This document shows positions 6,989 to 61,723 of a DNA stretch of 64,000 bases, in pieces. This DNA comes from Patescibacteria group bacterium (GTDB taxonomy: Bacteria > Patescibacteriota > Patescibacteriia > SG8-24), in NCBI GenBank assembly GCA_041667185.1, contig JBAYFM010000008.1:1714-65713 (forward strand), in the 5' to 3' direction. Every line of letters begins with the position of its first letter. The stretch's first letter is position 1. The notes below the pieces were generated by a model, which had not been told where the DNA came from, did no database searches, and saw only the letters and a program-made list of their open reading frames with translations. A program made the translations under genes and the position numbers.

Positions 6989-7416
6989 GGTTTGACGGGT
7001 ACATTCAGTACAAATAAAATGGACGAAATACTTGATCATTTTGGCGGACCCTTGGGCTCTTAGCTTAATGGGAAGCCGCGGTTGTGCGGCTTGCGCCGAG
7101 AGGTGGCGGCCTTAGCCGCGCATCTGTAGTGTTCAGTCGCTAGCGCGACTAAACTGCGTCATAGAGCACCCGGTTTGACGAGAACATTCAGAATAAATAA
7201 AACGAACGAGATCCTCGATAATTCTGGTGGACCTGGGCCTGTAGCTTAACGGGAAGCCGTGGTTGTGCGGCTTGCGCCGAGAGGTGGCGGCCTTAGCCGC
7301 GCATTCGTAGTGTTCAGTCGCTGGCGCGACTGAACCGCGTCGTAGAGCAGCCGTTTTGACGAGCACTTTCAGAAACTATAAAAGGACGAGATACTTGATC
7401 ATTTTGGCGGACCCTT
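6989..7416 (+). repeat. two tandem ~182-bp units, each carrying a 5' leader plus a tRNA-Ala 5' fragment interrupted by a 91-nt GC-rich hairpin insert (family-1 element)
   Basis: Units start at GGTTTGACG at 6989, 7172 and 7353. tRNA-Ala 5' fragment GGGCTCTTAGCTTAATGG at 7054-7071 (diverged copy 7235-7252). Inserts at 7072-7162 and 7253-7343 (GGAAGCCGCGGTTGTGCGGCTTGCGCCGAGAGGTGGCGGCCTTAGCCGCG...AGTCGCTAGCGCGACT...). The tRNA sequence then resumes with AGAGCACCCGGTTTG (7163-7177) and breaks in the anticodon loop. Confidence 0.85.
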
Positions 7417-7490
7417 GGGCTCTTAGCTTAATGGCAGAGCACCCGGTTTGCATCCGGGAGACGTGGGTTCGATTCCCACAGGGTCCACCA
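7417..7490 (+). tRNA. tRNA-Ala (anticodon UGC)
   Basis: Acceptor GGGCUCU/AGGGUCC with G3:U70. Anticodon loop UUUGCAU, T-loop UUCGAUU, encoded CCA. Cloverleaf folded by hand. Confidence 0.9.
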
Positions 7491-7492
7491 AA

Positions 7493-7987
7493 ATGATGAA
7501 GTGCATTATCAAGATCATGAATCCAAAGTCCAAAAAACTGACCTTCGATCTCCGCTCGACCTATCTCGCGGTCATCAGGAACAGCGTCGGAACCAAAATG
7601 TTCCGCAATTCCTGTGGACGCGCAGCCGGCCGAGCTGTTGATCTGACCCGGGGCGGGCGCTTGTCCTGCGCATTTTTCGTCACTTCGGTCCTGCGTATTT
7701 TCGGATTGATCAAAGAACAGCACACGACCGTTGGTGGCGCGGTCCGGGACCTGGAACAGAGCGGCTGGCGGCCAGTGAAGACGGCGCGGCCGGGCGACAT
7801 CCTGGTCTGGGAAGCGGTCGTCGGCCAGGACGGCAATCATGAACATATCGGATTTTTGATCGCGCCCGGCGTCGCGGTCAGCAACAGCACTCGCGCGCGC
7901 CTGCCGGCCGAACATCATTGGACCTACGGCGTCCGCGCCGGCAAGCCGGTCCGGCGCGTCATGACGATCTACCGCTGGAACTTCTAG
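7493..7987 (+). CDS. hypothetical protein (possible NlpC/P60- or CHAP-like Cys/His fold)
   Basis: Start MMKCIIKIMNPKSKK directly after the tRNA. Contains a ...NSCGRAAGRA... Cys and a later NHEHIGFL His arrangement. The antisense ORF 7376-8005 overlaps the tRNA and is rejected. Confidence 0.4.
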   Translation: MMKCIIKIMNPKSKKLTFDLRSTYLAVIRNSVGTKMFRNSCGRAAGRAVDLTRGGRLSCAFFVTSVLRIFGLIKEQHTTVGGAVRDLEQSGWRPVKTARPGDILVWEAVVGQDGNHEHIGFLIAPGVAVSNSTRARLPAEHHWTYGVRAGKPVRRVMTIYRWNF

Positions 7988-8002
7988 ACCGAGATCAAAA
8001 AA

Positions 8003-8036
8003 CACGCCCGATCAGGCGTGTTTTTGGGGACTGTCC
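8003..8036. terminator. bidirectional rho-independent terminator
   Basis: AAAAAACACGCCCGATCAGGCGTGTTTTT: hairpin flanked by an A-run and a T-run. Serves both the + gene ending at 7987 and the - gene ending at 8094. Confidence 0.65.
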
Positions 8037-8093
8037 CGGGGTGGAAATGGCGGCGCTAAAATAAGCCATTTTTTTGTTGATGTGCGTCCCCGC

Positions 8094-8846
8094 CTAGCCG
8101 AATTCCGTGCGGCGCGGCGACTGTTCGATGATTTTCAGAGCCTCTTCGGCCGTGTCCACCAGCCGATAGAGTTTTTTGTCGCTCGCCGATACGGCCTGAT
8201 AGCGCTCCTGCACCATCTCGTCGACCCACTTTAGGAACGGCGACCAGAATTCTTTGCCCACCAGGATGATCGGGATCTTGGCCGAGATCTTTTTGGTCTG
8301 GATCAGGGTGATAATCTCGGTCAGTTCGTCGAACGTGCCCCAGCCGCCGGGCATGTAGACGTAGGCCTGGGCGGAGTAGGCGAGCATGACTTTGCGGACG
8401 AAGAAATAGTGGAAGCTGACGCCTTTTTCGACGAACGGGTTGGCCCGCTGCTCGAACGGCAGCTTGATGTTGAGTCCGAAAGAGTCGCCCGGACCGCCGC
8501 CTTCGCTCGCGCCCATGTTGGCCGCTTCCATGATGCCCGGACCGCCGCCCGTGATGACGCTGTAGCCTTTGTCAGCCAGGAGCCGCCCGAGTTTGCGAGC
8601 CTCCTGATACCAGCGGTTCTTCTTCGGGAAGCGCGCTGAACCGAAAATCGTCACGCTTTTTTTGACGTCGGCGAGGAAATTCCAGCCGTCGACGAATTCG
8701 GCCATGATGCGCAACACGCGCCAGTGGAAGGAATTGCGGAAGTCAGCCTCGTGTTCGAAGACCGGCAGCTCGGAAGCCGGGACGTTGAGATCCTGGGCCC
8801 GAGTCAGCGTCTTGGGCAGTTTCTTTTTGGAGGCCTTTTTTTTCAT
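8094..8846 (-). CDS. LOG family protein (cytokinin riboside 5'-monophosphate phosphoribohydrolase-like, TIGR00730)
   Basis: GGGPGIMEAANMGA and PGGWGTFDELTE motifs. Confidence 0.85.
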   Translation of the reverse strand: MKKKASKKKLPKTLTRAQDLNVPASELPVFEHEADFRNSFHWRVLRIMAEFVDGWNFLADVKKSVTIFGSARFPKKNRWYQEARKLGRLLADKGYSVITGGGPGIMEAANMGASEGGGPGDSFGLNIKLPFEQRANPFVEKGVSFHYFFVRKVMLAYSAQAYVYMPGGWGTFDELTEIITLIQTKKISAKIPIILVGKEFWSPFLKWVDEMVQERYQAVSASDKKLYRLVDTAEEALKIIEQSPRRTEFG

Positions 8847-8855
8847 AGGTCGTAT

Positions 8856-9236: not shown

Positions 9237-9281
9237 TGTTCAGTGTCGACCGGCTTGTGTTGTTCTCGTGCTGGAGCGTGG

Positions 9282-10262
9282 TCACTTCCACAGATCGATA
9301 CTGATCCGTTTCAGTACGCCGGCCGAAGGATAATTGTTGATGATGCCGCGCTTGGCGCCCATCTGTTGGATGACGCTGGAAGCGTTCCAGATACCGACGG
9401 CCAGGCCGTAGCGCAGGTCGTCTTTTTTCATCAGTCCGGCGACGAAACCCGAACCGAAAGCATCGCCAGCTCCTGTGACATTGAGGTGTTTGACGTTCAT
9501 GGCCGCGACGTGCCAGCTGTCTTTGTGGTTAGCTACGTAAGCGCCATTCTTGCCATCGGTGATCATGAGCGCCTGGCGCGGTAGGCCGCGGAGCGCGTCC
9601 CGGAGCGCGGCGATATCGCGATCGCGTCGTCCGGTGAGCAGCATCGCCTCCTCGACGTTCAGGTTGAAAACGTCGGTTTTGCGGATGAGCGGGGTCAGCC
9701 GGTCGAGGCCGTGCCGGAGTTCTTTGGTGCCGGGATTCCAGGCGACCTTGATGCCGTTCTTTTTGGCGAAGTTCAGTGTTTTTTCCATGAGCGCCAATTT
9801 GCCGCCGAGGGAGGTTATATAGAACCATTTGGCGCCGATGTACTGCCAAGGGATGAGTTTGGCCGAGATCATTTCCGAAGCGCCGCGATAGACAAGTACG
9901 GTCCGTTCGCCGGTGCCGGTCAGAATGATCGCTGAAAAAGCCGTCTGGTCGTCGCGATCGGTCTGCATGAAGCCGGTCGAGATCCGTTCCGAACGGAGCG
10001 TCTCGAGCACCGCCCGGCCGCCATCATCGTTGCCGACGGAACTCACGATCGCGGTGCTGTAGCCGAGGCGGCTGAAGGTCGTGGCCGCGTTAGTCGCGCC
10101 GCCGCCGGTCTCGAGCACCAGGTTGTTGATCTCGATCTTGGCGCCGAGCGGAAAGCAGCCCTCCATGGTGTGGGTCGCGTCGTCGCTCTCGATGATCTCG
10201 AGGGCGGAGCTTCTGATGAAGACATCGCGAGTGGCAGAGCCGAAAGTGATGACATCGTACAT
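9282..10262 (-). CDS. PfkB family carbohydrate/ribokinase-like kinase
   Basis: GGGATNAA N-terminal motif and C-terminal VTGAGDAFGSGFVAG (DTxGAGD). Start at MYDVITFGSATRD; the longer ORF N-terminus runs through a GGGAG-rich repeat and is rejected. Confidence 0.8.
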   Translation of the reverse strand: MYDVITFGSATRDVFIRSSALEIIESDDATHTMEGCFPLGAKIEINNLVLETGGGATNAATTFSRLGYSTAIVSSVGNDDGGRAVLETLRSERISTGFMQTDRDDQTAFSAIILTGTGERTVLVYRGASEMISAKLIPWQYIGAKWFYITSLGGKLALMEKTLNFAKKNGIKVAWNPGTKELRHGLDRLTPLIRKTDVFNLNVEEAMLLTGRRDRDIAALRDALRGLPRQALMITDGKNGAYVANHKDSWHVAAMNVKHLNVTGAGDAFGSGFVAGLMKKDDLRYGLAVGIWNASSVIQQMGAKRGIINNYPSAGVLKRISIDLWK

Positions 10263-10263
10263 A

Positions 10264-10340
10264 TGGTTGGAGTGGGGGAGTTGGGGAGTGGGGGAGTTGG
10301 GGAGACCGACTCTCCCGCACTTCTCCACTTCCGCACTCTC
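10264..10340. repeat. GGGAG-rich intergenic element (family instance a)
   Basis: GAGTGGGGGAGTTGGGGAG x2, then GACCGACTCTCCCGCACTTCTCCACTTCCGCACTCTC. On the mRNA strand it gives a pyrimidine-rich CTCCCCAACTCCC leader immediately 5' of the kinase start. Confidence 0.6.
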
Positions 10341-11289: not shown

Positions 11290-11292
11290 AGG

Positions 11293-12252: not shown

Positions 12253-12270
12253 AAAATGACCGGGTCAGCG

Positions 12271-14118: not shown

Positions 14119-14594
14119 AAGCAACGGCCGCGTTGTTCGTAGTCGTGGATCTGTTTCAGACGCCGGCGATGGCGCGCGGAATCGGAGAAAGACGTCGCCA
14201 GCCAGAGTCTGATCAGGCGCAGCGCTGTCGAGACGCGACCGCTCGGCGTGCGGGCGCCGAGGCACATCACGTTGGCGTCGTTGTGTTCGCGGGAGAATTT
14301 GGCCGAGTAGGCGTCATAGACCAGGGCGCCGCGGATGCCGGCCACCTTGCTCGCGGCCAGGCATTCGCCGATGCCGCTGCCGCCGAAGAAGATGCCGACG
14401 CTCTTGCCGCGGGACTTCGCCACGGCTTCGGCCGCTGGGATGATGAAGTCGGGATAATCGCTCGGTTCAGCGGAAAAAGCGCCTAAGTCGCGCACTTCGT
14501 GGCCCTGGCCGCGCAAAAAAACCACGACCGCTTCCTTGAGCTTGAAGCCGGCATGATCGCTGGCGAGATAGATCGTTCGTTTTTTGGCGGCCAT
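14106..14594 (-). CDS. rpiB: ribose-5-phosphate isomerase B
   Basis: RpiB/LacAB family: IYLASDHAGFKLKE..., CLGARTP. Confidence 0.85.
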   Translation of the reverse strand: MAAKKRTIYLASDHAGFKLKEAVVVFLRGQGHEVRDLGAFSAEPSDYPDFIIPAAEAVAKSRGKSVGIFFGGSGIGECLAASKVAGIRGALVYDAYSAKFSREHNDANVMCLGARTPSGRVSTALRLIRLWLATSFSDSARHRRRLKQIHDYEQRGRCLCRK

Positions 14595-14737
14595 GTCGAT
14601 GAGTCTTTAGCTGCTTCTATATTATAATTCTATCATAATCAGCCCGGGCGCGTCATTAAGCCGGTCTGACGGTAAAATTAGGCGCGCCCCGTCCGATGGT
14701 TTACTTTTATCCGATATCTGCTTATAATTGGCTTCAT

Positions 14738-17700
14738 ATGGCGAAATTTCATCTACCATCGATCGAAGAGGAGCAACTGAAAAAATGGGACGAAAAAGAC
14801 GTTTTCCGCCAGGTCCTGAACAAGCCGGACCAGGGAAAGTCGTTCGTTTTTTTCGAGGGGCCGCCAACGGCCAACGGCAAGCCGGGCATTCATCATGTGC
14901 TCGCGCGGTCGTTCAAGGACGTCATCCTGCGTTTCCGCACCATGCAGGGACACAAGATCGACCGCAAGGCCGGCTGGGACACGCATGGCCTGCCGGTCGA
15001 ACTCGAGGTCGAGAAACAGCTCGGATTCACGCAGAAGAAACAGATCGAGGAGTTCGGCATCGCCAACTTCAACGCCAAGTGCAAGGAGTCGGTCTGGAAG
15101 TATCTCGACATCTGGCAGCAGATGACGAAGCGCATCGCGTTCTGGGTCGATCTCGAACATCCCTACATCACTTACACCAACGATTACATCGAGTCGCTCT
15201 GGTCGATCATCAAGGAGATCGATCGCAAGGGTTTGTTGTACCAAGGTTATCGCGTGACGCCGCACTGCCCGCGCTGCGTGACTTCGCTGTCATCGCACGA
15301 GTTGGCGCAGGGCTACAAGGATGTCGACGATCAGTCGGTCTACGTGAAGTTTCCGATCGATGCTGCGGCCAAGCGCTACTTCCTCGTCTGGACCACGACG
15401 CCGTGGACGCTGCCGGGCAATGACGCTCTCGCTGTCGGCGCGGCCGTGACCTATGCCGAGGTGAAGATGAAAGCGACGGGCGAGACCTATATTTTGGCTA
15501 AAGACAGGCTTGTCAGTCTCGACGGCGAGTACGATATCTTGTCGGAAAAGACCGGGGAGCAGCTGGTCGGCATCGCGTACCAGCCGCTTTATGACACCGC
15601 CAAGGCGTTCACCGCGGCCGCTGAATCTTCACGTCTCGCGAACGCCTACAAAGTTTATGCGGCTGGTTTCGTTTCGACGACCGACGGCACCGGCATCGTC
15701 CACATCGCGCCGGCGTTCGGCGAGGATGACGCGCGTCTGGGCGAAGCGGCCAAGCTGCCGACTCTGCTCACGGTCGATTCGACCGGCATGATGCTGGCCG
15801 AGGCTCCGGGCAAAGGCAGGTTCATCAAGAAGGCCGACGAGGACGTCAAAGCTGATCTCACCGCGCGCGGCCTGCTTTACAAATCCGAGACCTATCGCCA
15901 CGCCTACCCGTTCTGCTGGCGCTGCGGCACGCCGCTCCTGTATTACGCCAAGAATTCCTGGTACATCCGGATGTCCGAGTTGCGCGAGAAACTGCAACAG
16001 CACAACCAGGCGATCAACTGGGTCCCGGATCACATCCGCGACGGCCGTTTCGGCGAGTGGCTGCGCGAGGTCAAGGATTGGGCGCTGTCCCGTGAGCGTT
16101 ATTGGGGGACGCCGCTGCCGATCTGGCGCTGCGAGTCGTGTCAGGAACGCCTGACCATCGGCGGCATGGAAGAGATGAAGAAGCTCGCGCGTCCGGGCAA
16201 TACTTATTATCTGCAGCGCCACGGCGAGGCCGAGAATAACGTTGCGAACGTGGTGAGCTCGTATCCGGAGCTTAAAGAATGGCATCTGACGGCTCAGGGA
16301 CGCGAACAGGTCCAGGTTGCCGCCAAGGAATTGAAGCAGCATGGCATCGATCTGATTTTCGCCTCCGACCTGCTGCGCACCAAAGAGACCGCCGAGATCA
16401 TCGCCGCGGAGCTTGGCTTGCCGGTCGTTTATGATCCGCGCCTGCGCGAGCTTGGCGTCGGCGAGGCCAACGGCAAAACCATCGCGGAATTCCACGCGCA
16501 ATTCGCGAGCAAACTGGAACGTTTCGACAAGCCGGCCGTCGGCGGCGAGAATCTGCGCGACTGCCGCCGTCGCTTGGTCGCGTTCGTCAAAGAACTGGAA
16601 GCGAAATATTCCGGCCAGCGAATCCTGATCGTGAGCCACGGCGATCCGATCTGGATGCTGGATTCCGGATTCGGCGGCGCGAGCGACGAAGAGACATTGA
16701 CGTGGCGGTATAACGCCGTCGGCGCGTTCAGCGAGTTCCGGCCGGATGGCCTGCCGCGCGACGATCAGGGCCGCATCGATCTGCACCGCCCCTATGTCGA
16801 TGAGGCGGCGCTCGCGTGTCCCAAATGTTCTGGCGCCATGAAACGGTCGACCGAGGTTCTCGATTGCTGGTTCGACTCGGGCGCCATGCCGTTCGCGCAA
16901 TGGCACTACCCCTTCGAGAACGCCGAACGCATCGACCAGGGCCGGAATTTCCCAGCCGACTACATCTCCGAAGCCATCGATCAGACCCGCGGCTGGTTCT
17001 ACACCCTCCTCGCGGTCTCGACCCTGCTCGACAAGCCGACGCCGCCCTACAAGAACGTCATCTGCCTCGGCCACGTGCTCGATGCCAAAGGCCAGAAGAT
17101 GTCCAAGTCCAAGGGCAATGTCGTCGATCCCTGGCTGATGATCTCCAAGTACGGCGCCGACGCCATCCGTTATCATTTCTTCACCGTGAACCAGCCGGGC
17201 GAACCGAAATGTTTCGACGAGAAGTCGCTCGACGAGGTGACGAAGAAAGTTTTCCTGATCCTCTGGAACGTCCTGACTTTCTGGCAGATGTATGCCGGGG
17301 AGAAAGCGCGTGCGACCGACGCATCGCCGGCTTCGCAGAACGAACTCGACCGCTGGATCCTGGCGGAACTGGCCGAACTCGGCTCGCAGCTCACCGGACG
17401 ACTGGAGAGTTACCAGGTCGTCGACGCCTGCCGCAGCCTGGGCGACTTCATCAACAGCCTGTCCACCTGGTACCTGCGCCGCAGCCGCGACCGTTTCAAG
17501 GGCGAGCCGACGGAGCGCCAGGCAGCCGTAGAAACGCTGGGTTACGTGCTTTTGACGCTGTCTCGGCTCATGGCGCCGTTCACGCCGTTCTTGGCCGAGG
17601 CACTGTACGCCGAGGTTGGCGGGCCGCTGGCTTCGGTCCACTTGGACGCGTGGCCGACGCTGAAGTCGCTTGAAGACGCGACCTTGCGCACCAAGATGGA

Positions 17701-18187
17701 GTTCGTGCGCCAGGCCGCTTCGCTCGGACTCGAGAAGCGCGCTGTCGCCGGCATTCCGGTGCGCCAGGCACTCGCCAAAGCGACGGTCCGTTCGGTCCAG
17801 GTTTTCGACCAGTGGATGAAAGAGATCGTGGCCGTGGAACTCAACGTCGAAGCGGTCGAGTCCGAGGTGATCAAGGAGGCGAAAGATGCCGCGGTCGAAC
17901 TCGACACCAACATCACGCCGGAACTCCGCCGCAAAGGCGCGGTCCGCGAACTCGTCCGCAACATCAACGACCTGCGCAAGACCGCTGGACTCACGGTGCA
18001 TGATCGCATCGTCTTGAATTGGAATGCCACCGGCGAATTCTGGCCGCAGGTCTTTGCCGAACATCGCGAGAGCTTGCTCAAAGACGTGCTGGCCGCGGAT
18101 ATCGCGGTCGGTTCCTCTGGCGAACTCGGCAACCGCGAGCTCGAGGTCGCCGGCGAGAAGGTCTGGCTCGGCATCAATAAAGTCTGA
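14738..18187 (+). CDS. ileS: isoleucyl-tRNA synthetase (type 2) with an inserted histidine-phosphatase (PGAM-like) domain
   Basis: EGPPTANGKPGIHH (HIGH class I), KMSKSKGN, editing/CP1 region, Zn knuckles CESC...CPKC. About 190 aa between the knuckles (nt ~16195-16775) carry RHGEAE, SDLLRTKETA and IVSHGD motifs of the histidine phosphatase superfamily. Start at MAKFHLPS (14738), with TATAAT 8 nt upstream. Confidence 0.9.
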   Translation: MAKFHLPSIEEEQLKKWDEKDVFRQVLNKPDQGKSFVFFEGPPTANGKPGIHHVLARSFKDVILRFRTMQGHKIDRKAGWDTHGLPVELEVEKQLGFTQKKQIEEFGIANFNAKCKESVWKYLDIWQQMTKRIAFWVDLEHPYITYTNDYIESLWSIIKEIDRKGLLYQGYRVTPHCPRCVTSLSSHELAQGYKDVDDQSVYVKFPIDAAAKRYFLVWTTTPWTLPGNDALAVGAAVTYAEVKMKATGETYILAKDRLVSLDGEYDILSEKTGEQLVGIAYQPLYDTAKAFTAAAESSRLANAYKVYAAGFVSTTDGTGIVHIAPAFGEDDARLGEAAKLPTLLTVDSTGMMLAEAPGKGRFIKKADEDVKADLTARGLLYKSETYRHAYPFCWRCGTPLLYYAKNSWYIRMSELREKLQQHNQAINWVPDHIRDGRFGEWLREVKDWALSRERYWGTPLPIWRCESCQERLTIGGMEEMKKLARPGNTYYLQRHGEAENNVANVVSSYPELKEWHLTAQGREQVQVAAKELKQHGIDLIFASDLLRTKETAEIIAAELGLPVVYDPRLRELGVGEANGKTIAEFHAQFASKLERFDKPAVGGENLRDCRRRLVAFVKELEAKYSGQRILIVSHGDPIWMLDSGFGGASDEETLTWRYNAVGAFSEFRPDGLPRDDQGRIDLHRPYVDEAALACPKCSGAMKRSTEVLDCWFDSGAMPFAQWHYPFENAERIDQGRNFPADYISEAIDQTRGWFYTLLAVSTLLDKPTPPYKNVICLGHVLDAKGQKMSKSKGNVVDPWLMISKYGADAIRYHFFTVNQPGEPKCFDEKSLDEVTKKVFLILWNVLTFWQMYAGEKARATDASPASQNELDRWILAELAELGSQLTGRLESYQVVDACRSLGDFINSLSTWYLRRSRDRFKGEPTERQAAVETLGYVLLTLSRLMAPFTPFLAEALYAEVGGPLASVHLDAWPTLKSLEDATLRTKMEFVRQAASLGLEKRAVAGIPVRQALAKATVRSVQVFDQWMKEIVAVELNVEAVESEVIKEAKDAAVELDTNITPELRRKGAVRELVRNINDLRKTAGLTVHDRIVLNWNATGEFWPQVFAEHRESLLKDVLAADIAVGSSGELGNRELEVAGEKVWLGINKV

Positions 18188-18300
18188 TAGGCTGAAGGAG
18201 TAGCGGAGTCAGGGAGAGACGGAGTCATGGAAGAACATCGATTCTCCCGCACTCTCACAAACTCCCTGACTCCGTCTCTCCCCAACTCCCATACTTCCGT
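18188..18300. repeat. GGGAG-rich inverted-repeat intergenic element (instance b)
   Basis: GGAGTCAGGGAGAGACGGAGTCA ... CTCCCTGACTCCGTCTCTCCCCAACTCCCA immediately 5' of the ruvA ATG. Confidence 0.65.
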
Positions 18301-19973: not shown

Positions 19974-20260
19974 GTGCGCCCGTAGTACAACGGATAAGCC
20001 CGCTTGATATAATAAGGAAAAGATATGCGGGCTTGCGGCCAGAGGTGGCGGCCTTAGCCGCGTGTCTATAATGTCCGATTGCTGCGCAACCGGACTGAGC
20101 CTAAGCCCGCTTGATATAATAAGGAAAAGATATGCGGGCTTGCGGCCAGAGGTGGCGGCCTTAGCCGCGTGTCTATAATGTCCGATTGCTGCGCAACCGG
20201 ACTGAGCCGTAGAATGCGATCTTTAAAACCCCATCAGTAGACGGAAGTCGTCGATTTTTT
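19974..20260 (+). repeat. tRNA-Arg 5' fragment (acceptor to D-loop), two tandem family-1 hairpin elements (R1, R2), then a short tRNA fragment
   Basis: GTGCGCCCGTAGTACAACGGATA (19974-19996) matches the tRNA-Arg 5' end. R1 19997-20103 and R2 20104-20210 are near-identical (AGCCCGC-ATrich loop-GCGGGCT, TGCGGCCAGAGGTGGCGGCCTTAGCCGCG, GTCCGATTGCTGCGCAACCGGAC). AGAATGCGA (20211-20219) is the tRNA D-stem 3' / anticodon-stem 5' side. Confidence 0.85.
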
Positions 20261-20262
20261 GT

Positions 20263-20337
20263 GCGCCCGTAGTTCAACGGATAGAATGCGAGCCTCCGAA
20301 GCTTGAGATCTAAGTTCGATTCTTAGCGGGCGCACCA
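20263..20337 (+). tRNA. tRNA-Arg (anticodon CCG)
   Basis: Acceptor GCGCCCG/CGGGCGC, anticodon loop CUCCGAA, T-loop UUCGAUU, discriminator A, CCA encoded. Confidence 0.9.
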
Positions 20338-20368: not shown

Positions 20369-20423
20369 AGTTTCCCGCCTTTGGCGGGACCCCGCCTTCC
20401 TCGAAGTAAATATAAGTGGCGGG

Positions 20424-20733
20424 GCAACGGATAAGCCCGCCCCGCACTTCGTGCGGGGACCAGGGCGGGCTTGCGGCCAGAGGTGGCGGCCTCCGCCGCG
20501 TGTTCTTTGTGTCCGGTCGCTGCGCAACCGGACTGGGCCTAAGCCCGCTTGATATAATAAGGAAAAGATATGCGGGCTTGCGGCCAAAAGTAGCGGCCTT
20601 AGCCGCGTGTCCATAATATCCGGTCGTTTAGCGACCGGACTGGGCCATAGAATGCGAGCCTCCGAAGCTTGAGATCCAAGTTCGATTCTTTGCCACCCGC
20701 AGCTTTGGCGGAGGGTGGTTAGCGGGCGCACCA
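20424..20733 (+). pseudogene. disrupted tRNA-Arg copy: D-loop fragment, two family-1 elements (R3, R4), tRNA 3' part with a 28-nt hairpin in the T-stem; no 5' acceptor strand
   Basis: CAACGGATA (20424-20432); R3 20433-20540 (variant with inner hairpin CCCCGCACTTCGTGCGGGG); R4 20541-20646; AGAATGCGAGCCTCCGAAGCTTGAGATCCAAGTTCGATTCTT (20647-20690); 28-nt hairpin TGCCACCCGCAGCTTTGGCGGAGGGTGG (20691-20718); TAGCGGGCGCACCA (20719-20733). Confidence 0.75.
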
Positions 20734-32030: not shown

Positions 32031-32099
32031 GCCGCCGCGGCATTTCAGAAATCGCGGACCACAAAGTTATTCGTTTCAATGAACGGCGGGGTCCCGCCC

Positions 32100-32230
32100 G
32101 GAGGCGGGAGAACCGGAGTATATTCCGCGGCCTATGATGCAGTCTGACCGCGAAGCGGGCGGACAGTTACAAATTCGCGGCTAAGGCCGCCACTTCTCGG
32201 CGCAACCCGCATGACCGCGGGTTACAAAAA
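32100..32230 (-). repeat. orphan copy of the family-1 GC-rich hairpin element (minus-strand orientation)
   Basis: Reverse complement reads TAACCCGCGGTCATGCGGGTTGCGCCGAGAAGTGGCGGCCTTAGCCGCGAATTTGTAACTGTCCGCCCGCTTCGCGGTCAGACTGCATCAT. This is collinear with the tRNA-Ala inserts (core TGCGCCGAGA[G/A]GTGGCGGCCTTAGCCGCG identical). The neighbouring TCTCCCGCCTCCGGGCGGGACCCCGCC is also shared with 20371-20400. Confidence 0.8.
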
Positions 32231-36707: not shown

Positions 36708-36795
36708 TTCAGCACAAGTGTTCTTTTTATGGCAGGCCTCAAGTATGCCTAATGACAGGCGTACAGGGGGTAAGCCAAAAACAAGGAGTCAGGTC

Positions 36796-38047: not shown

Positions 38048-38611
38048 ATGGTCCAGAAGAAGAGCGAGTCCGTCTTTGCCGTCGGCACCACCTTTGAGAT
38101 CATCGTGAAGCTCTCCGGAGCCGTCCGCGACCTCGGCGGGTCGGATGATCACCTCCGCCGGATCCTCTCCGATGAGAAGCTCCGTCGCGAGATCGCTGGG
38201 CTGCTGGTCGGTAAGTCCCTCGCCGAGATGATCGCCAAGTGCAAGTTCAGCTACGTTAACCCCGTCATCGACGAGCAGAACCTTCTGCTCGCCGGACCGG
38301 TCGCGGATATATCGGACATGCTGGTTGTCAGCCAGAAGGATCTTGGCGGTCAGGATATGACCACTGCCGCAGTCGAGGCTGCCATTGACTGTATGGGTTA
38401 CCGTCCTGCGTCCCTCGTCGAACAGCTCGTCTATGCCAAGGCGAAGTGGAACGGTAAGGACCACGTGAACGCTTGGGTGGAATCGCATAACCAACGCTAC
38501 ATCTCGAGTCTGTCCGGGGATGGCGCCGGCGACCGCGAGTTGACCTTGTTCCGAATCGTATCTGGGTTCTGCTGGTTCGGTGACATTCGTTTTCTCGTCG
38601 TTCGCAAGTAA
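38048..38611 (+). CDS. hypothetical protein, paralog B (187 aa; one copy of the unknown domain)
   Basis: Same N-terminal 55 aa and C-terminal FLVVRK as paralog A. Conserved leader AAACAAGGAGTCAGGTCATG. Hairpin terminator follows. Confidence 0.6.
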   Translation: MVQKKSESVFAVGTTFEIIVKLSGAVRDLGGSDDHLRRILSDEKLRREIAGLLVGKSLAEMIAKCKFSYVNPVIDEQNLLLAGPVADISDMLVVSQKDLGGQDMTTAAVEAAIDCMGYRPASLVEQLVYAKAKWNGKDHVNAWVESHNQRYISSLSGDGAGDRELTLFRIVSGFCWFGDIRFLVVRK

Positions 38612-38818: not shown

Positions 38819-39371
38819 GTCAGGTCGACCGGATGATCGCCCCGCAGTACTGCGGGGAGGAAAGTCTGAACACCTCCCGCATTCATGCGGGAAAAGGGAC
38901 AATCGCTAACGGCGACCGGGAGCAAGCGTCGGAATTTCTTTTCAATAGCCAATTGGCGAAAGAAGTTTCGCGTCCAAGCCCAGGGAGAGTGCAACAGAAA
39001 ATACACCGCCTGCGCCCCGTGATGACGAGCGAAAGCGAGTCATTTTACGGGGCTAGAAGCGTCACCGGCGCAAGCTAGTGCCGACAAGGCAAGGTTGAAA
39101 TCGTGAGGTAAGAGCTCACGCGGGACTGCGGGGCGTGAGCCGTGAAAGCGGCTTTTACGCCCCCACGGACAAGAACCTTCGGGTTCCAATATCTGGCCGC
39201 GCGAGCGGCGCCGTGGAAAACCCTGTCCGGTGCAAGAGCAAGTTTGGTAGCTCGCAGGCCGCAGTCGCAAGGTTGCGGCCAAGGCCGCTGGCAACAGCGG
39301 TCGCAGAGAGATGATCATCGCCTCGCGGTCAAACGCGGGGTACAAAATTCGGCTTACAGGCCGGCCTGACA
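38819..39371 (+). ncRNA. rnpB: RNase P RNA (bacterial type A)
   Basis: GGAGGAAAGTC (P4 5' strand), GTTGAAATCGTGAGGTAAGAGCTCACGC (GGUAAGAGCGCACC-like P10-12 region), and ACAAAATTCGGCTTACAGG (P4 3' strand ACAGAAnnCGGCUUA). 5'/3' ends can pair as P1 (GTCAGG...CCTGAC). Confidence 0.8.
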
Positions 39372-39377
39372 AGAAAA

Positions 39378-42253: not shown

Positions 42254-42284
42254 ATGATATCCAGTATAGATTATGAGACGGTAA

Positions 42285-42430
42285 AAGTGTAGGAGAGTGC
42301 AGGAGTGGGGGAGTGAGGGAGAGACGGAGTCAGGAAGTGGTGGAGAGACGGAGTGGCGGAGTCAGAGAATTACGAAAAAGCGGGGATTGATGTCCCCGCT
42401 TTTTACTTCTTGATGACTCCGTCTCTTCGT
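42285..42430. repeat. GGGAG-rich inverted-repeat element flanking a bidirectional terminator (instance d)
   Basis: Left arm GGAGAGTGCAGGAGTGGGGGAGTGAGGGAGAGACGGAGTCAGGAAGTGGTGGAGAGACGGAGTGGCGGAGTCAG. Centre AAAAAGCGGGGATTGATGTCCCCGCTTTTT (terminator for rnj). Right arm TGACTCCGTCTCTTCGTCTCTCCCTGACTTC. Confidence 0.7.
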
Positions 42431-42443
42431 CTCTCCCTGACTT

Positions 42444-44306
42444 CTACACTTCGATGATGACCGGCAAAACCATCGGCCGGCGCTTGATGGCGTTGAAGAG
42501 GAATTGGCCGATGTCGTTGCGGATCTTGTTCTTGAGGTGTTCCTCGAAGGCCGGCGATTTCTTGTCGGTGTCGGTGAGGATCTTCTTGACGCGGCTGCGG
42601 GCCTTCTCGATCATCTCCTTGTTTTCGCGCATGTAGACGAAGCCGCGCGAGAGGATGTCGGGCGAACCGACGAGTGCGCCGGTCTTCTTATCGATGGTGG
42701 CGATGATGACGAAGATGCCGTCCTCGGCGAGCATGACGCGGTCGCGCAGCACCACCTGGGAGACGTCGCCGACGCCGAGGCCGTCGACCATGACGTAGTC
42801 GGTCATGACACGCTCCTCGGTCAGGCGTCCGCCGCGGGCGTCGAATTCCATGACCTGGCCGTTCTCGGCGACCATGATGCGGTCGCGCGTGATGCCGACC
42901 TCTTCGCCGACGCGGGCGTGTGCTTCGAGCATGAAGCGGTTGCCGTGGATCGGAACGAGATATTGCGGTTTGACCAGCCGCAGCATGAGCTTAAGATCTT
43001 CCTGTTTGGCGTGGCCGCCGGCGTGGACGTCGAGATTCTGGTAGTGGTAGACGGTCGCGCCGTGTTTGACGAGCGTATCCTTGAGCGTCTGGACGGTCCG
43101 CTCGTTGCCCGGCACGACCGAGGACGAGAAGACGAAGCCGTCGCCTGGTTTCACATAGAGGTAGCGGTGTTCGTTGTTGGCCATGCGCATGAGCACGGCG
43201 TTCTTTTCGCCCTGGGCGCCGGTGCAGAGGATGACGATCTTTTCGTCAGGGAGCTTGCCCGCCGCGCCCTCCTCGATGATGGTGCCGGGCTTGATCTGCA
43301 TGTAGCCGAGCTGGTGGGCGATCTCGATGTTGTTGTTCATGCTCCGCCCCTCGATCAGCAGCTTGCGGCCGTATTTTTCGGCGAGCGTGATGATCTGCTG
43401 GGCGCGCGTCAGGAGCGACGAGAAAGTGCCGATGATGATGCGGCCTTTGGCGCTCTGGAAGATGCGTTCGAGCTCGACTGAAACCTGGCGCTCGGAGATC
43501 TGGTGGCCGGGGCTGTCGGCGTTCGTGGAATCGGACATGATGGCAAGCACGCCCTTCGCGCCGAAGGAAGCGATGTGCGCCAGATCAGCCGGCTCATCGT
43601 TCACCGGGGTGAAATCGAATTTGAAATCGCCGGTGTAGAGGATGGTGCCGTACGGCGTGTGGATCGCCGCGCCGAAAGCGTCGGAGATGTTGTGATTGAC
43701 ATGGAACGGCTCGAAGACGAAGTGCCGGCCGAGCGCGATCTTCATATTGTCCTTCACGAGCTGGATCTTGAGCGACTTGGCGTTGCCGAATTCTTCCTGG
43801 CGCTTGCGGATGATGCCGGCCGTGAGCGGAGCGGTGTAGATGACCGGATTGCCGAGGCGGCTGATCGTGAGCGGGATGCCGCCGATGTGGTCCATGTGTC
43901 CGTGGGTCACGATGACGCCGCGGATATTCTGTTCGCGCCCCTTGAGCGAAGAGATGTTGGGGATGATGTAGTCGATGCCTGGCATGCCCTCTTCGGGGAA
44001 CATCATGCCGATATCAATGATGATGATGTCGGCGCCGCATTCGAGCACAGTGCAGTTGCGGCCGATCTCTTCGAGACCGCCCAAAGCGTAGACCTTGAGC
44101 TTGGGAGCCAGGATCTTGGGTTGCGGCTGTCCGGGTTTGCCGTTCATGACGGGCCGGAACTGGGCCTGGACCGGATTGAGCGGCAGCGGTGGAGCCGGAA
44201 GTTTGATCTGCGGCCGACGGATGGAACCCTGCGCGAGCGGGGACGGTCCGTGGCGATGCCCCGGGCGCTGATGTTGCGGCCGGCGCGGCCTGTTATCTGT
44301 TACCAT
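42444..44306 (-). CDS. rnj: ribonuclease J (metallo-beta-lactamase / beta-CASP RNase)
   Basis: VTHGHMDHIGG motif and beta-CASP region. About 70-aa Pro/Arg/Gln-rich N-terminal extension; an internal start (MNGKPGQ) is possible. Confidence 0.85.
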   Translation of the reverse strand: MVTDNRPRRPQHQRPGHRHGPSPLAQGSIRRPQIKLPAPPLPLNPVQAQFRPVMNGKPGQPQPKILAPKLKVYALGGLEEIGRNCTVLECGADIIIIDIGMMFPEEGMPGIDYIIPNISSLKGREQNIRGVIVTHGHMDHIGGIPLTISRLGNPVIYTAPLTAGIIRKRQEEFGNAKSLKIQLVKDNMKIALGRHFVFEPFHVNHNISDAFGAAIHTPYGTILYTGDFKFDFTPVNDEPADLAHIASFGAKGVLAIMSDSTNADSPGHQISERQVSVELERIFQSAKGRIIIGTFSSLLTRAQQIITLAEKYGRKLLIEGRSMNNNIEIAHQLGYMQIKPGTIIEEGAAGKLPDEKIVILCTGAQGEKNAVLMRMANNEHRYLYVKPGDGFVFSSSVVPGNERTVQTLKDTLVKHGATVYHYQNLDVHAGGHAKQEDLKLMLRLVKPQYLVPIHGNRFMLEAHARVGEEVGITRDRIMVAENGQVMEFDARGGRLTEERVMTDYVMVDGLGVGDVSQVVLRDRVMLAEDGIFVIIATIDKKTGALVGSPDILSRGFVYMRENKEMIEKARSRVKKILTDTDKKSPAFEEHLKNKIRNDIGQFLFNAIKRRPMVLPVIIEV

Positions 44307-44764
44307 AATTAAAATGTGTTCGCCGCGGAGAGCCGCAGCCGGAGCGAGAGCACTCCTGATCTATAAGAGTCCCGTTTGCACGGGTGAATATTGGGTTAAT
44401 GTGTTCCTCAACCATCTCTAACGGATACGACCGTTACCGCAGAGGAAAGTGGGAGATGCGGAGGGGATAGTTCGCTATCCGCTTTGCGCCGCTCATTTTC
44501 TTCTGTCCTTATCAGGCAACTGCCTCTATCATTATTATACCATAATGACAGATCCGGTTGTTTGCTGTCGTCCGATACCATCCCACCTAGCTCGAGCCGC
44601 GCTCGAGCGATGTGGGATGGTGCTGCGGGAGGGAGTCCCGCTCGCTTCGACTCGCGGTCCGGGGCGCTGCGCACTGGCGCTTCGCCGGCTCGCGCCTCTC
44701 GCGCCCTTCGACTCCTTATTTATACCAGATGACTGTCGCCGCCCTGTGGGCGGCACCAATCATC

Positions 44765-44850
44765 TGGTGCTGCGGGAGGGAGTCGAACCCTCATGACCTT
44801 GCGATCGCTAGCTCCTGAAGCTAGTGCGTCTGCCATTTCGCCACCGCAGC
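44765..44850 (-). tRNA. tRNA-Leu (anticodon CAG), type II with long variable arm
   Basis: Reverse complement GCUGCGG...CUAGC-UUCAGGA-GCUAG...GAGGG-UUCGACU-CCCUC-CCGCAGC-A-CCA. G37; 86 nt. Confidence 0.85.
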
Positions 44851-45117
44851 GTATATTTTTATTGCGGGAGGGAGTCGGCCTCCCTCGTAAAAGATCTGAA
44901 ATTACTCGGTCGGCCCGGGGCGCCCCTTGGCGCCCGTGCGCCGCTGCGTTGACTTGCGGCGCACCCCTCATGACCTTGCGATCGCTAGCTCCTGAAGCTA
45001 GTGCGTCTGCCATTTGTTTCGCTCGCGTAGAAATTGTAATCGCTCGCGAAACCCCGGGCACGTCTTCGCGCCCGTGCGGCGCTCGCCGGTTCGCGCCGCA
45101 CCCACCGCAGCGAGAAC
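44851..45117 (-). pseudogene. disrupted tRNA-Leu copy carrying two related ~80-nt GC-rich hairpin inserts (family-2) in the D-stem and T-stem
   Basis: In tRNA orientation: GCTGCGGTGG, insert A (plus-strand 45016-45100; GTGCGGCGC-loop-GCGCCGCAC GGGCGCGAAG...), AAATGGCAGACGCACTAGCTTCAGGAGCTAGCGATCGCAAGGTCATGAGGG, insert B (44885-44963; GTGCGCCGC-loop-GCGGCGCAC GGGCGCCAAGGGGCGCCC...), then a degenerate T-stem/acceptor GGGAGGCCGACTCCCTCCCGCA. Confidence 0.75.
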
Positions 45118-45159
45118 TTTTGTCCGTATAATATGCCTGATTTTGGCTGATTTGTCAAG

Positions 45160-45300
45160 TTGGTGGGGGAGGCGGAGAGACGGAGTTGGGGAGAGACGGA
45201 GTCAGGGAGAATATAATAGTTCTGACTCCGTATCTCCGTCACTCCATGACTCTATGACCTCGTATCTTCCTCACTTCCAAACTCTCCTCGTATTGATATA
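45160..45300. repeat. GGGAG-rich element (instance e)
   Basis: GGTGGGGGAGGCGGAGAGACGGAGTTGGGGAGAGACGGAGTCAGGGAGAATATAATAGTTCTGACTCCGTATCTCCGTCACTCCATGACTC... Hairpin GGAGTCAG...CTGACTCC. Confidence 0.65.
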
Positions 45301-56726: not shown

Positions 56727-56801
56727 TGGTCGGCCCGGATGGATTCGAACCATCGACCAACGCCTTATAAGAGCGCTGCTCTACCGCTGAGCTACGGGCC
56801 G
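56727..56801 (-). tRNA. tRNA-Ile (anticodon UAU)
   Basis: Reverse complement CGGCCCG-UA-GCUC-AGCGGUA-GAGC-A-GCGCU-CUUAUAA-GGCGU-UGGUC-GAUGG-UUCGAAU-CCAUC-CGGGCCG-A-CCA. Anticodon loop C-U-UAU-A-A. 75 nt. Confidence 0.75.
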
Positions 56802-57075
56802 AGATGAGTTGTGATCGAAGCGAGACTGTGCTGGTCTGACCGCCAAACGATCAGCCGAGCCTTGTCCCCCGCAGCTTCACCCTTCTTCGCTAAAGCTACG
56901 AAGGGTCTGAGGACTGCCCAGTTTTTTGTCGACGTGCCGAAACAGTTTTTGGGCAGGCCCATCGCAGCTTCAGCGAAGGTGGGGCGGATGGGGAAGCTAC
57001 GGGCCGGTAGGCCGCCAAAATATATCAATCAAGCGGCCTGTTGGCAACGGAGCGCAACGCCAGTATACTGACCCC

Positions 57076-59084: not shown

Positions 59085-59153
59085 TCGTCTTCAAGCGGCC
59101 TTTCGAGGCCGCTTTTTTGTTTGTAAAATATCTCAATTTTCGCTACAATAATC

Positions 59154-60593: not shown

Positions 60594-60594
60594 T

Positions 60595-60948
60595 ATGCGC
60601 GAAGGAGAAGGACAACTGGATCCGGAGCAGAGAAATCCGGAGATTGGAAAAATTCCAGAACAAGATCGGGCTCGGGCAGGGGTCGGAAAGATTCCTGAGT
60701 TTTGGGGGAAAGACGGCGAGGCTCCGGCCGAGATCGGCCGCGAGTTGATCGCGACAAATGAAGCCGTGGCGGAAATCTTTTGGGGCCGAGCGGCGGATTT
60801 TGCCGAGTCCGCGGCGGCACAGGGACTGAGCCGGGAACTCGGACCGTTCTTGAAAAAGTTTTCTGAATTGAACGATCGGACGTTTGCTTCCGGACGCTTG
60901 CGCGCGGCGCGGATACGCGTGGCGGAAAAATTGCCGCCAGCGTCTTAA
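60595..60948 (+). CDS. hypothetical protein
   Basis: 117-aa ORF starting directly after the Ldt stop. E/G/R-rich. No family recognised. Confidence 0.35.
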   Translation: MREGEGQLDPEQRNPEIGKIPEQDRARAGVGKIPEFWGKDGEAPAEIGRELIATNEAVAEIFWGRAADFAESAAAQGLSRELGPFLKKFSELNDRTFASGRLRAARIRVAEKLPPAS

Positions 60949-60951
60949 AGT

Positions 60952-61377
60952 ATGTCCAGTCCGTTTGAGATCAAAAATTTCATCGAGTCCGTCGAACGAT
61001 CTTTTTTATCGGCTGCTGACAAACAGATGCTCGCGTCCGAAGCTCGGCACGGCGTTGACCAGGCACTGTGGAGCCGTTTCAATGATCTACTCGTTGCCTG
61101 GCTGGTGGAGAATCAGGCCAAACAGGATCGAACCAGTGTGCGGCTGGACGTGGAGATCGACCGTTACACCAGAGAATACGAACATGAGAAGACCAAAATC
61201 GACCAGGAATATCGGCCGGCGCTAGAGGATGCGATCCGGCGCGGAGAATCGGCTGACAGCGGCACCTGGGCCGAATATCGTGAGAAGATCAGGCTCCTCC
61301 AGACCCAGCTGATCGCTGAAGTAAAAGCGACTTCTGCGACCGTGCTGCGCGAAGTGGTGCTGGCGACCGTCGGGTAG
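60952..61377 (+). CDS. hypothetical protein
   Basis: 141-aa ORF with coiled-coil-like charged composition. Followed by terminator AAAAACACCCCAGGGCAAGCCTGGGGTATTTTT (61402-61436). Confidence 0.45.
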   Translation: MSSPFEIKNFIESVERSFLSAADKQMLASEARHGVDQALWSRFNDLLVAWLVENQAKQDRTSVRLDVEIDRYTREYEHEKTKIDQEYRPALEDAIRRGESADSGTWAEYREKIRLLQTQLIAEVKATSATVLREVVLATVG

Positions 61378-61436
61378 GGGGAGTATAAACTGCGAGAATC
61401 AAAAACACCCCAGGGCAAGCCTGGGGTATTTTTGAT

Positions 61437-61610
61437 GGTGGGCGGCAGAGGAGTCGAACCTCTGACCTTCACAATGTCAATGTGACGCTCTAACGCCCAG
61501 TCCGGTCGTCTTGCGACCGGACACAAGAAATGCGCGGCGGCGGCCGCCACATCTGGCGTCAAGCCCGCCCTGGTCCCCGCGTTCGCGCGGGGCGGGCTTA
61601 ACCAACTGAG
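61437..61610 (-). pseudogene. partial tRNA-Val copy (D-loop to CCA) carrying a 105-nt family-1 element in the D-loop; no 5' acceptor strand
   Basis: In tRNA orientation: CTCAGTTGGTTA, family-1 element (plus-strand 61494-61598; AGCCCGCCCCGCGCGAACGCGGGGACCAGGGCGGGCT TGACGCCAGATGTGGCGGCCGCCGCCGCG...GTCCGGTCGCAAGACGACCGGAC), then TTAGAGCGTCACATTGACATTGTGAAGGTCAGAGGTTCGACTCCTCTGCCGCCCACCA, identical to the intact gene. Confidence 0.8.
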
Positions 61611-61646
61611 TAAAACAAAAAAGCCAGGTTTGACCTGACTTTCTTG

Positions 61647-61723
61647 TGGTGGGCGGCAGAGGAGTCGAACCTCTGACCTTCACAATGTCAATGTGACGCT
61701 CTAACCAACTGAGCTAGCCGCCC
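61647..61723 (-). tRNA. tRNA-Val (anticodon GAC)
   Basis: Reverse complement GGGCGGC-UA-GCUC-AGUUGGUUA-GAGC-G-UCACA-UUGACAU-UGUGA-AGGUC-AGAGG-UUCGACU-CCUCU-GCCGCCC-A-CCA. Confidence 0.9.

Follow-up and report, generated by a model that had tools for sequence, protein, structure and literature searches.

Why do the tRNA genes of a small bacterial genome stand beside broken copies of themselves that are interrupted by short GC-rich hairpins? The question is raised by a 64,000-nt stretch of DNA (the window; GC ~60%) from a metagenome-assembled genome, probably Uhrbacteria-like, of Patescibacteria, the candidate phyla radiation (CPR). ARAGORN and Rfam (Rfam 15) annotate in it intact tRNA-Ala, tRNA-Arg(CCG), tRNA-Leu(CAG), tRNA-Ile(UAU) and tRNA-Val(GAC) genes, an interrupted second tRNA-Val and an RNase P RNA. 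The original prediction, made from this sequence by itself, proposed a family of hairpin elements tied to tRNA genes (family 1, here called E). We compared the window with contigs of relatives and of other genomes (L001-L028) and located copies of E by a core-motif search, by blastn and by a covariance model built from 15 copies. E is a discrete unit with filled and empty sites and TA flanks; it uses a shared target motif, keeps its hairpins under constraint, recurs in other genomes and is younger than its host in one case. On balance we lean towards the view that it is a selfish, non-autonomous mobile DNA element which inserts sequence-specifically and survives only in redundant tRNA copies. 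This view draws on what the aligned sequences suggest: precise ends, TA flanks, a target motif found alike in four types of tRNA, in an anticodon loop and at a site outside tRNAs, a patchy distribution, and tandem arrays with recombinant copies.

The core of E (GCGGCCAGAGGTGGCGGCCTTAGCCGCG) was matched seven times in the window and never in shuffled sequences, while blastn and the covariance model agreed on exactly eight copies of 90 to 108 nt (85-108 nt in the family overall): two at tRNA-Ala, four at tRNA-Arg, one at tRNA-Val and one orphan. This is the count first proposed, and two further claims made with it, that the seven tRNA-embedded copies share one position and that they lie in partial duplicates beside an intact paralog, were borne out. 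All seven tRNA-linked copies are oriented as their tRNA and lie in fragments of tRNA-Ala, tRNA-Arg or tRNA-Val, with GG(N) of the D-loop before them and TAGAG/TAGAA after them; their hosts are partial in 7/7 cases, with an intact gene adjoining each. The copies are not one locally amplified segment, a possibility that the original prediction had itself raised, for they are spread over 54 kb and are present in other genomes.

At tRNA-Ala (plus strand), two 5' units, both stopping in the anticodon loop, precede the intact gene. Unit 1 has a promoter-like site, TTGACG-17-TAAAAT, at 6992-7020 (units 2 and 3 start at an equivalent TTGAC, at 7173 and 7354). It consists of tRNA nt 1-18 of a c-type allele (7054-7071), the 90-nt copy Ala-1 (7072-7161; the left TA degenerate, GA, the right TA at 7162-7163) and tRNA nt 21-35 (7162-7177), which ends in the anticodon loop at a microhomology, GGTTTG, with the -35 box of the next unit. 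Unit 2 is of b type and comprises a 5' fragment matching the intact gene of L004 (7235-7252), the copy Ala-2 (7253-7342) and nt 21-35 (7343-7358). The intact tRNA-Ala(UGC) lies at 7417-7490, and its D-loop, GGCAGAGC, is without TA. The leader of tRNA-Ala also contains ~21 nt complementary to the acceptor 3' strand, CCA and trailer (CTTGATCATTTTGGCGGACCC versus GGGTCCACCAAAATGATGAAG; window 7396-7416 and 7484-7510, L004 1455-1480 and 1370-1392). This pairing, which competes with the acceptor stem, is kept through the differing sequences of the b and c alleles and is absent in L001. Downstream of its intact tRNA-Ala, L004 carries at least two tandem 3' halves of different alleles (1300-1395, minus strand; ~53 nt each), which start in the anticodon loop, between g and catccgg, with no inserts between them.

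The four copies at tRNA-Arg (plus strand) form two head-to-tail pairs, and in each pair each tRNA half is touched by only one copy. The Arg-1 host retains tRNA nt 1-19 and 21-30. Its 5' fragment (19976-19994), which keeps the ancestral leader as in L001, is followed by copy Arg-A (19995-20101), by the 100% identical Arg-B (20102-20209) and by nt 21-30 (20210-20219); a 43-nt spacer unrelated to the ancestral leader then separates it from the intact tRNA-Arg(CCG) at 20263-20337. The Arg-2 host retains nt 14-76 with an extra hairpin in the T arm. It starts with a GC hairpin block (cccgcc..ggcggg, accccgcc..ggcgggg) and tRNA nt 14-19 (20372-20431), orthologous to copy 2 of L008, and continues with Arg-C (20432-20539), whose hairpin 1 is of Val type, Arg-D (20540-20647) and nt 21-76 (20648-20733), the separate T-arm insert of ~29 nt lying at ~20691-20719. 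On the minus strand, the intact tRNA-Val(GAC) (61647-61723) is accompanied by a pseudo-copy of nt 12-76 (61436-61609) that holds a copy of E at 61493-61600 and retains the ancestral terminator, as in L028. ARAGORN and Rfam both call the 3' portion of this pseudo-copy (61436-61511, minus strand; in Rfam 30.7 bits against a threshold of 29) a tRNA, so that annotation pipelines would list a second, false tRNA-Val. The orphan copy (32135-32224, minus strand) stands after a terminator with the flanks TGTA..TAGG, and its subtype recurs, together with an identical 25-nt right flank, in an unrelated gene context in L005. The GC hairpin block (cccgccNNNNggcggg-accccgcc..ggcgggg) was found at 20372-20424 and 32050-32112 (minus strand) in the window and at 15640-15696 and 15893-15945 in L008, at places next to tRNA-Arg pseudo-copies, beside the orphan and within a T-loop of L008; it behaves like a further insertion family.

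What do the insertion sites have in common? The target is the TA of TA-GAGC, TA-GAAT, TA-AAGC, TA-GGCC or the element's own TA-AGCC. TA is present on both flanks at Arg, Val and the orphan and in L003, L018 and L020, and a single TA is present at empty sites. The intact b-type tRNA-Ala of L004 is such an empty site, reading cttaacggTAgagcagcc; in unit 2 of the window, in L003 and in unit 1 of L004, E stands exactly between gg and TAgagc of the b-type sequence. The Arg-2 pseudo-copy of L008 is also empty, and behind the same upstream hairpin block its ggcggggc runs directly into aatggaTAgagc. In L018, the native tRNA-Lys has ggTAgagc and its upstream copy ggTA[E]TA[E]TA[E]TAgagc. The window sites read ggaTA[E]TA[E]gTAgaatg (Arg), ggtTA[E]tTAgagc (Val) and tgTA[E]TAgg (orphan). 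In L016 and L020, a relative of E lies in the anticodon loop of a partial tRNA-Thr, where the native sequence is ttcgTAaagca and the filled one ttcgTA[E]TAaag. The window contains 1337 TA dinucleotides, yet at the independent Ala, Arg and Val loci insertion is always at the one in the D-loop motif; such recurrence is not due to chance. The Thr copy and the tandem copies at the TAAGCC end indicate that the target is a sequence and not the structure of the D-loop. The D-loop specificity assumed at first is thus to be replaced by TA in TAGAGC-like motifs, which include TAAAGC in the Thr anticodon loop and the TAAGCC end of the element. That this end is itself a target explains the head-to-tail arrays.

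The growth of arrays and the swapping of modules are the result of unequal crossover in the conserved core. In L018, the second copy consists of the 5' half of the third and the 3' half of the first; Arg-C combines a Val-type hairpin 1 with an Arg-type hairpin 3, so that the modular hairpin swaps noted from the window alone are accounted for. Unequal crossover, demonstrable in L018, also agrees with an explanation that needs no dedicated enzyme. Hairpin blocks would then pass from one tRNA locus to another through gene conversion or template switching on short D-arm (or T-arm) homology, while DNA is repaired or once foreign DNA has been taken up, and the partial duplications would come from the same illegitimate events. 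The D-arm sequences flanking E are alike across tRNAs, the Ala array mixes alleles that other strains carry as intact genes, the duplication junction at Ala has the GGTTTG microhomology, and intact copies have flanks unrelated to the ancestral ones. However, the homology (blastn) of Arg-C to the Val copy, with 81% identity over 115 nt, ends exactly at the element boundaries; across four tRNA types and three genomes, the ends agree to the nucleotide; and the Thr copy and the orphan are without D-arm homology, yet have the same TA-R-R-S-C motif and TA flanks. We regard this explanation as unlikely. A mobile module made of E, tRNA nt 21-35, leader and tRNA nt 1-20 was also considered and was rejected at Ala, where the pieces flanking each E belong to the same allele (c-c, b-b).

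If E is mobile DNA, as we favour, it would enter at TA within a short motif and would afterwards have TA on both sides. In a compact genome the best copies of that motif would be the D-loop/D-stem junctions of tRNA genes, where insertion into the sole functional gene would be lethal or costly. The visible copies would be those that landed in redundant tRNA copies, which would then decay to fragments; erosion of the disrupted copy would account for the incompleteness of all interrupted copies and for the several inserts that pseudo-copies gather. Once two copies adjoin, unequal crossover in the core would enlarge the arrays and exchange modules. The mobilising enzyme would act in trans and be encoded outside the window, candidates being a DDE transposase that duplicates TA, a recombinase whose crossover dinucleotide is TA and a Y1 transposase acting on single-stranded DNA. 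The selfish nature of E, the survivorship logic and the class of enzyme are what we infer.

Does E produce the pseudo-copies? The original prediction described partial duplications as accompanying E, but they are no by-product peculiar to it. Relatives without E have pseudo-copies with other hairpin inserts, and the Arg-2 pseudo-copy is older than the insertion of E, because the orthologous copy of L008, which spans nt 14-76 and follows the same GC hairpin block, is without it. L008 has in addition a third tRNA-Arg copy with other inserts, and L028 has an interrupted upstream tRNA-Ile copy comparable to that of the window as well as a 3' tRNA-Val copy interrupted in the T-loop. In the window, all five tRNA loci (Ala, Arg, Leu, Ile, Val) carry pseudo-copies. 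Four had been noted; the tRNA-Ile fragment (nt 1-12, 56995-57006, minus strand), upstream of the intact tRNA-Ile at 56727-56801 (minus strand) and followed by unrelated GCAGCTT-type hairpins, had been overlooked. This tRNA-Ile has the UAU anticodon, as does the same gene in L028; a tRNA-Ile with this anticodon is uncommon in bacteria.

At tRNA-Leu (minus strand), a second family of GC-rich inserts marks a disrupted gene, as was first described. The interrupted copy (44863-45111) is nearly full-length, has the ancestral promoter and a truncated 3' end, and contains family-2 inserts in the D-loop (45016-45101) and in the T arm (44887-44964). The intact tRNA-Leu(CAG) (44765-44850) lies 12 nt downstream, and a partial copy of the 3' side, comprising the T arm and the acceptor end (44618-44715), has a GC-rich T-loop insert (44637-44706) that is common to the 91% relative L023 and was not linked by blastn to the two family-2 inserts. 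In L025, the upstream tRNA-Leu copy is likewise interrupted by a family-2 insert in the T arm, whose first hairpin shows compensatory changes. The leader that stands before the interrupted copy in the window is followed in L023 by a plain tRNA-Leu. The inserts of family 2, like the remaining GC-rich hairpin inserts, probably belong to the same kind of element as E. A 20-nt perfect palindrome, CCTGCCTGCCGGCAGGCAGG, occurs in the D-loop of the interrupted tRNA-Leu copy of L025 (9238-9257) and in the interrupted tRNA-Ile copy of L028 (~14381-14400, minus strand), and may be a further small mobile palindrome. Simple local tandem duplication fails as the source of all pseudo-copies at Arg-1, Leu and Val, where the spacer or terminator beside the intact copy has no relation to the ancestral flank present in relatives.

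The state of the host copies also bears on the suggestion that E is an intron-like sequence removed from tRNA precursors. Its position within tRNAs and its compact fold with adjacent ends would suit an intron, and Patescibacteria do have tRNA introns, namely group I introns in anticodon loops (PMC13011429). However, no interrupted copy is whole: each is truncated or disrupted more than once, with an intact neighbour, which contradicts this alternative as first offered; moreover, 85-108 nt is far below the size of ribozyme introns, no intron model matches, and two or three tandem copies stand at one site. An intron is therefore most improbable.

On the other hand, partial copies of a tRNA, with foreign flanks and an adjacent intact gene, are the classic footprint of integration. 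E might then be the remnant of an att arm left by tRNA-targeting integrative elements (phage, island or tycheposon-like), with the partial tRNAs as displaced att halves. Such elements, like E, use tRNA genes as conserved landing sites; the tandem 3' halves of L004, starting in the anticodon loop, fit as well, and the region downstream of tRNA-Arg is variable among relatives. However, integrative elements use the anticodon loop, T-loop or 3' end, whereas E uses the D-loop TA, and to our knowledge the D-loop is not a crossover site of any integrase. The ORF (open reading frame) scans of the window and neighbouring loci found no integrase, and between the repeats there are only the ~100-nt element and short spacers, with no cargo. 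The duplication junctions differ at each locus. Because the same complete ends are found everywhere and copies are joined head to tail, E is a whole unit and not a random remnant, and we consider an origin as integration scars decidedly unlikely.

How widely is E distributed? With the strict core, only three metagenome contigs of the Joint Genome Institute (JGI) were matched, two of them tRNA-Ala loci of close relatives and one an orphan-type copy, and GTDB species genomes gave no match. A scan with a relaxed core returned three true and five chance matches and added L018, L016 and L020, which places the family at tRNA-Lys(CUU) (three tandem copies in L018) and tRNA-Thr(CGU) (L016 and L020) in further CPR genomes. 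The covariance model found no copy in the relatives L001, L002, L006-L009 and L023-L028, and relatives with 72% isoleucyl-tRNA synthetase (IleRS) identity or 82-91% RNase J identity are entirely without E. In viral contigs, the loose-core scan gave chance matches only, in GC-rich coding DNA, and BLAST against phage and plasmid records gave none. Judged by these searches, the distribution is patchy: E is in distant CPR lineages and not in nearer relatives. Our literature search found no description of tRNA-targeting MITEs (miniature transposable elements with inverted repeats) in prokaryotes, and reviews of prokaryotic MITEs were without mention of tRNA targeting.

Which known system, then, does E resemble? 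MITEs of the IS630/Tc1-mariner type, such as Correia elements and RUP, have clear terminal inverted repeats and insert at TA, mostly between genes, with little other specificity. E shares with them a length of ~100 nt, the lack of coding capacity, TA on both sides, many copies and a presumed mobilisation in trans. The single TA of empty sites and the two TAs of filled ones are what TA duplication on insertion, as in that group, would leave; terminal inverted repeats are missing, and E is strongly motif- and tRNA-specific. PATE elements, moved by Y1 transposases of the IS200/IS605 type, have no inverted termini and carry subterminal hairpins at both ends, as E does. Read on the opposite strand, all sites of E have YCTA or CTTA immediately before the insertion point, which would suit insertion 3' of YCTA, a motif that the CTTA of E's own end resembles; the identical data can equally be read as TA duplication. 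However, no transposase is linked to E, and neither TA on both flanks nor the conserved central hairpin and core has a counterpart in PATE. The bias in replication orientation is also missing: six copies are on the plus and two on the minus strand, independent loci are divided two to two, and GC skew is positive over the entire window. An IS200/IS605 assignment is not supported, as the TA flanks suit a 2-bp duplication or a shared crossover dinucleotide equally well or better. For an IS110/IS1111 (bridge or seek RNA) or serine recombinase, we found the expected absence of inverted termini and the shared flank dinucleotide, and neither a recombinase gene within the element nor guide loops. A recombinase with a TA crossover dinucleotide, perhaps acting in trans, could account for the flanks and the arrays, no gene or guide for it having been found in the window. 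Integrative elements carry an integrase and cargo, whereas E is an insert of ~100 nt without either.

The nearest analogue in behaviour is, by comparison of their features, found in yeast mitochondrial DNA, whose GC42 and M-class clusters are mobile GC-rich hairpins (PMC4478555, citing Weiller et al. 1989). Both are short, GC-rich and protein-less, and in neither case is the mobilising mechanism known; both have a putative 2-nt target duplication and constrained hairpins (in yeast, substitutions are concentrated in loops), and both occur as single elements and as tandem arrays with merged or shuffled units. They differ in that the yeast clusters are organellar single hairpins of 30-60 nt that target AG/TAG in AT-rich spacers and are not associated with tRNA pseudo-copies, whereas E is bacterial, has three hairpins, targets tRNA-gene motifs and is associated with such copies. 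Another organellar parallel concerns the tRNA genes. Yin, Heckman and RajBhandary reportedly described in 1981, for the mitochondria of Neurospora, PstI palindromes rich in GC on the flanks of tRNA genes. Like E, these are GC-rich palindromic repeats tied systematically to tRNA genes; they are much shorter and flank functional genes, whereas E interrupts pseudo-copies. We therefore rate E as not a member of any named family.

The fold of E was analysed in an alignment of 15 sequences. After the leading TA, the layout is hairpin 1, AGAGGTG, hairpin 2, a T-rich linker, hairpin 3 and a 3' tail. Hairpin 1 starts at nt 2 and has the base AAGCC(C)..GG(G)CTT, its interior ranging from a 6-nt loop to a nested hairpin. 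The AGAGGTG that follows is conserved and unpaired, and hairpin 2, GCGGC-NNNN-GCCGC, is invariant; the three hairpins fold around the conserved core AGAGGTG-GCGGCC-NNN-GCCGC (AGAGGTGGCGGCC). The sequence of hairpin 3 varies by subfamily with its pairing always kept; ACTG and 4-5 nt follow, so that the hairpin closes 8-9 nt short of the 3' end. When 5' ends were compared with the reverse complements of 3' ends in the aligned sequences, no consistent terminal inverted repeats were seen: the ends, AGCC(C)GC... and ...GNSC(N) (ACTGNGCC), are not mutual inverted repeats in any subfamily. The element holds no ORF and is too short to carry one. By inspection, its unpaired segments (AGAGGTG, the hairpin 2 loop and the linker) are constant whatever the target tRNA, and no guide-like complementarity between unpaired segments and target flanks was seen.

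The hairpins and their compensatory changes, proposed from the eight window copies, are upheld by the alignment. Pairing is found in 92.8% of alignment cells, compared with 26-39% when the pairing partner is slid, five pairs of hairpin 3 show double-sided changes, and the orthologous copies of L016 and L020 differ by a compensatory pair. A long-range helix (P0) that had been claimed, joining the 3' end to the stretch behind hairpin 1, is possible in every copy; however, its cognate energy of -6.7 kcal/mol is barely better than the -5.6 kcal/mol of non-cognate combinations, which lends it little support, and it was left out of the model. An outward promoter within the element (TATAAT in the Arg copies) was dismissed as unconserved in other subfamilies. 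Hairpin 2 with the T-rich linker resembles a terminator in some copies only (20483-20499; 61533-61551, minus strand; L018 5745-5775); such a site, if active, would block read-through from upstream promoters into the intact tRNA. In Rfam, only tRNA and RNase P reached the threshold and the best other matches were at chance level; E had no match at the gathering threshold, nor up to an E-value of 10 at the Arg and Leu loci searched with a permissive threshold. A weak match to RtT (E-value 0.48) on the 3' partial copy of tRNA-Leu comes from the tRNA 3' end.

Several observations weigh against a selfish mobile DNA. The left TA is degenerate in three Ala copies, those of the window and that of L004 (GA, GA and AA). 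A TA-duplicating transposase suits the TA flanks, but the absent inverted termini do not fit the IS630/Tc1-mariner type. No recognisable transposase or integrase was found among the scanned ORFs of the window, a search limited to 64 kb; the Pfam and NCBIfam scans, which took in 48 of the largest ORFs and left several hypothetical proteins without annotation, agree in this with the original prediction. Neither a Y1 transposase (TnpA) nor TnpB was found among the scanned ORFs of the window and the neighbouring loci. L024, a second assembly of the strain of the window, is identical to it in the Leu region, their only overlap; no strain-level insertion polymorphism was seen at Arg, Val or the orphan, with L024 covering Leu only. 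At Arg-1, Leu and Val, it is the interrupted copy that retains the ancestral flank, while the intact copy has one unrelated flank. Survivorship alone leaves unexplained both the pseudo-copies at 5/5 loci and the novel flanks of intact copies, and the pattern of ancestral and novel flanks hints at a coupling of insertion to the gain of a replacement part; illegitimate recombination that takes up foreign alleles may be another source. Finally, folding is slightly better for the sense than for the antisense strand (summed energies -696 versus -667 kcal/mol), and this predicted difference, together with conservation in place, would be equally expected of a functional RNA.

E could accordingly be a structured RNA cut from tRNA operon transcripts, for which the tRNA fragments serve as RNase P and RNase Z handles, its copies being kept by the host or spreading by way of RNA. 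Each tRNA-linked copy has the orientation of its tRNA, and those at Ala, Arg-1, Leu and the tRNA-Lys of L018 lie between a promoter and the intact tRNA, so that E is predicted within tRNA transcripts. E is also structurally constrained and better conserved than its surroundings. The Ala-type copies are 88-93% identical when their promoter and leader regions are 64-79% identical, and between L016 and L020 E is 97% identical and the adjoining pseudo-T-arm 75%. Compensatory changes keep the hairpins, the better folded sense strand has more G-U pairs, and the element ends at helix bases, a geometry that would let E protrude from its host RNA. However, the L016/L020 value matches that of the adjoining coding DNA (96%), no Rfam family resembles E, the relatives close in IleRS or RNase J lack it, the orphan and Val copies stand behind terminators, and tandem duplication and recombination resemble selfish DNA. 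A functional RNA is rather unlikely in our judgement.

The flank pattern may also suggest a parasite of tRNA genes whose active form is a folded single strand (RNA or single-stranded DNA), which would insert between U and A of tRNA-like sequences and be fixed together with a replacement tRNA part. Fixation of E with such a part would explain why a disrupted ancestral half stands beside a patched functional gene. In a variant, the pseudo-tRNA units bearing E would be expressed, tRNA-scaffolded RNAs with a role of their own. We hold this reading, its variant included, to be unlikely. Either form, if true, would mean an undescribed mechanism of mobility or maintenance in CPR bacteria.

Other features of the window lie apart from E. 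The RNase P RNA (bacterial type A; 38821-39372, plus strand) has 552 nt against the 367 positions of the model, with three large, lineage-specific insertions of ~55, 60-80 and ~86 nt. These show no family-1 motif by eye and no copy by the covariance model, and look unrelated to families 1 and 2. The IleRS (14696-18187, plus strand) contains an inserted histidine-phosphatase domain, His_Phos_1, at residues 505-671, an architecture found in all 120 CPR homologues among the matches listed. Its sequence is 100% identical to that of a Patescibacteria protein, with ~72% identity to the next relatives. A separate repeat family, an 8-nt periodic repeat (GGAGNNNN and its complement), forms long imperfect inverted repeats between genes, with intergenic runs at 10261-10313, 18179-18297, 42268-42452, 45156-45285, 63130-63170 and 63743-63904. 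At 2354-2483 (plus strand), two tandem 65-nt units, 82% identical and each with the GC hairpin CCCCGCAAAGCGGCTGCGCCGCTCGCGGG, lie at the start of the ORF 2400-3785. The segment pairs 36671-36956/37923-38208 and 37418-37546/38226-38354 are 86% and 76% identical; they fall in neighbouring ORFs of unknown function (36718-37809 and 38048-38611) and look like local paralogues.

E is a previously undescribed family whose precise target is a TA within the best conserved motif of tRNAs, and it recurs across distant CPR lineages. CPR genomes are small (~1 Mb) and dense, their repeats are little known, and this window shows several small structured insertion families at tRNA genes. Arrays of pseudo-copies probably break CPR assemblies and yield false or missed tRNA calls; the contig of the 89% relative L027 ends in the T arm of tRNA-Val (2694-2761), as would follow from a partial copy downstream at which assembly failed. 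Should E be a functional RNA, it would represent an abundant and new class of RNAs linked to the processing of tRNAs. Should it be mobile DNA, the enzyme that moves a site-specific, protein-less element without inverted termini would be of interest, and the tRNA loci would be a natural experiment in which tiny genomes survive attack on essential single-copy RNA genes by means of spares, patches and decay.

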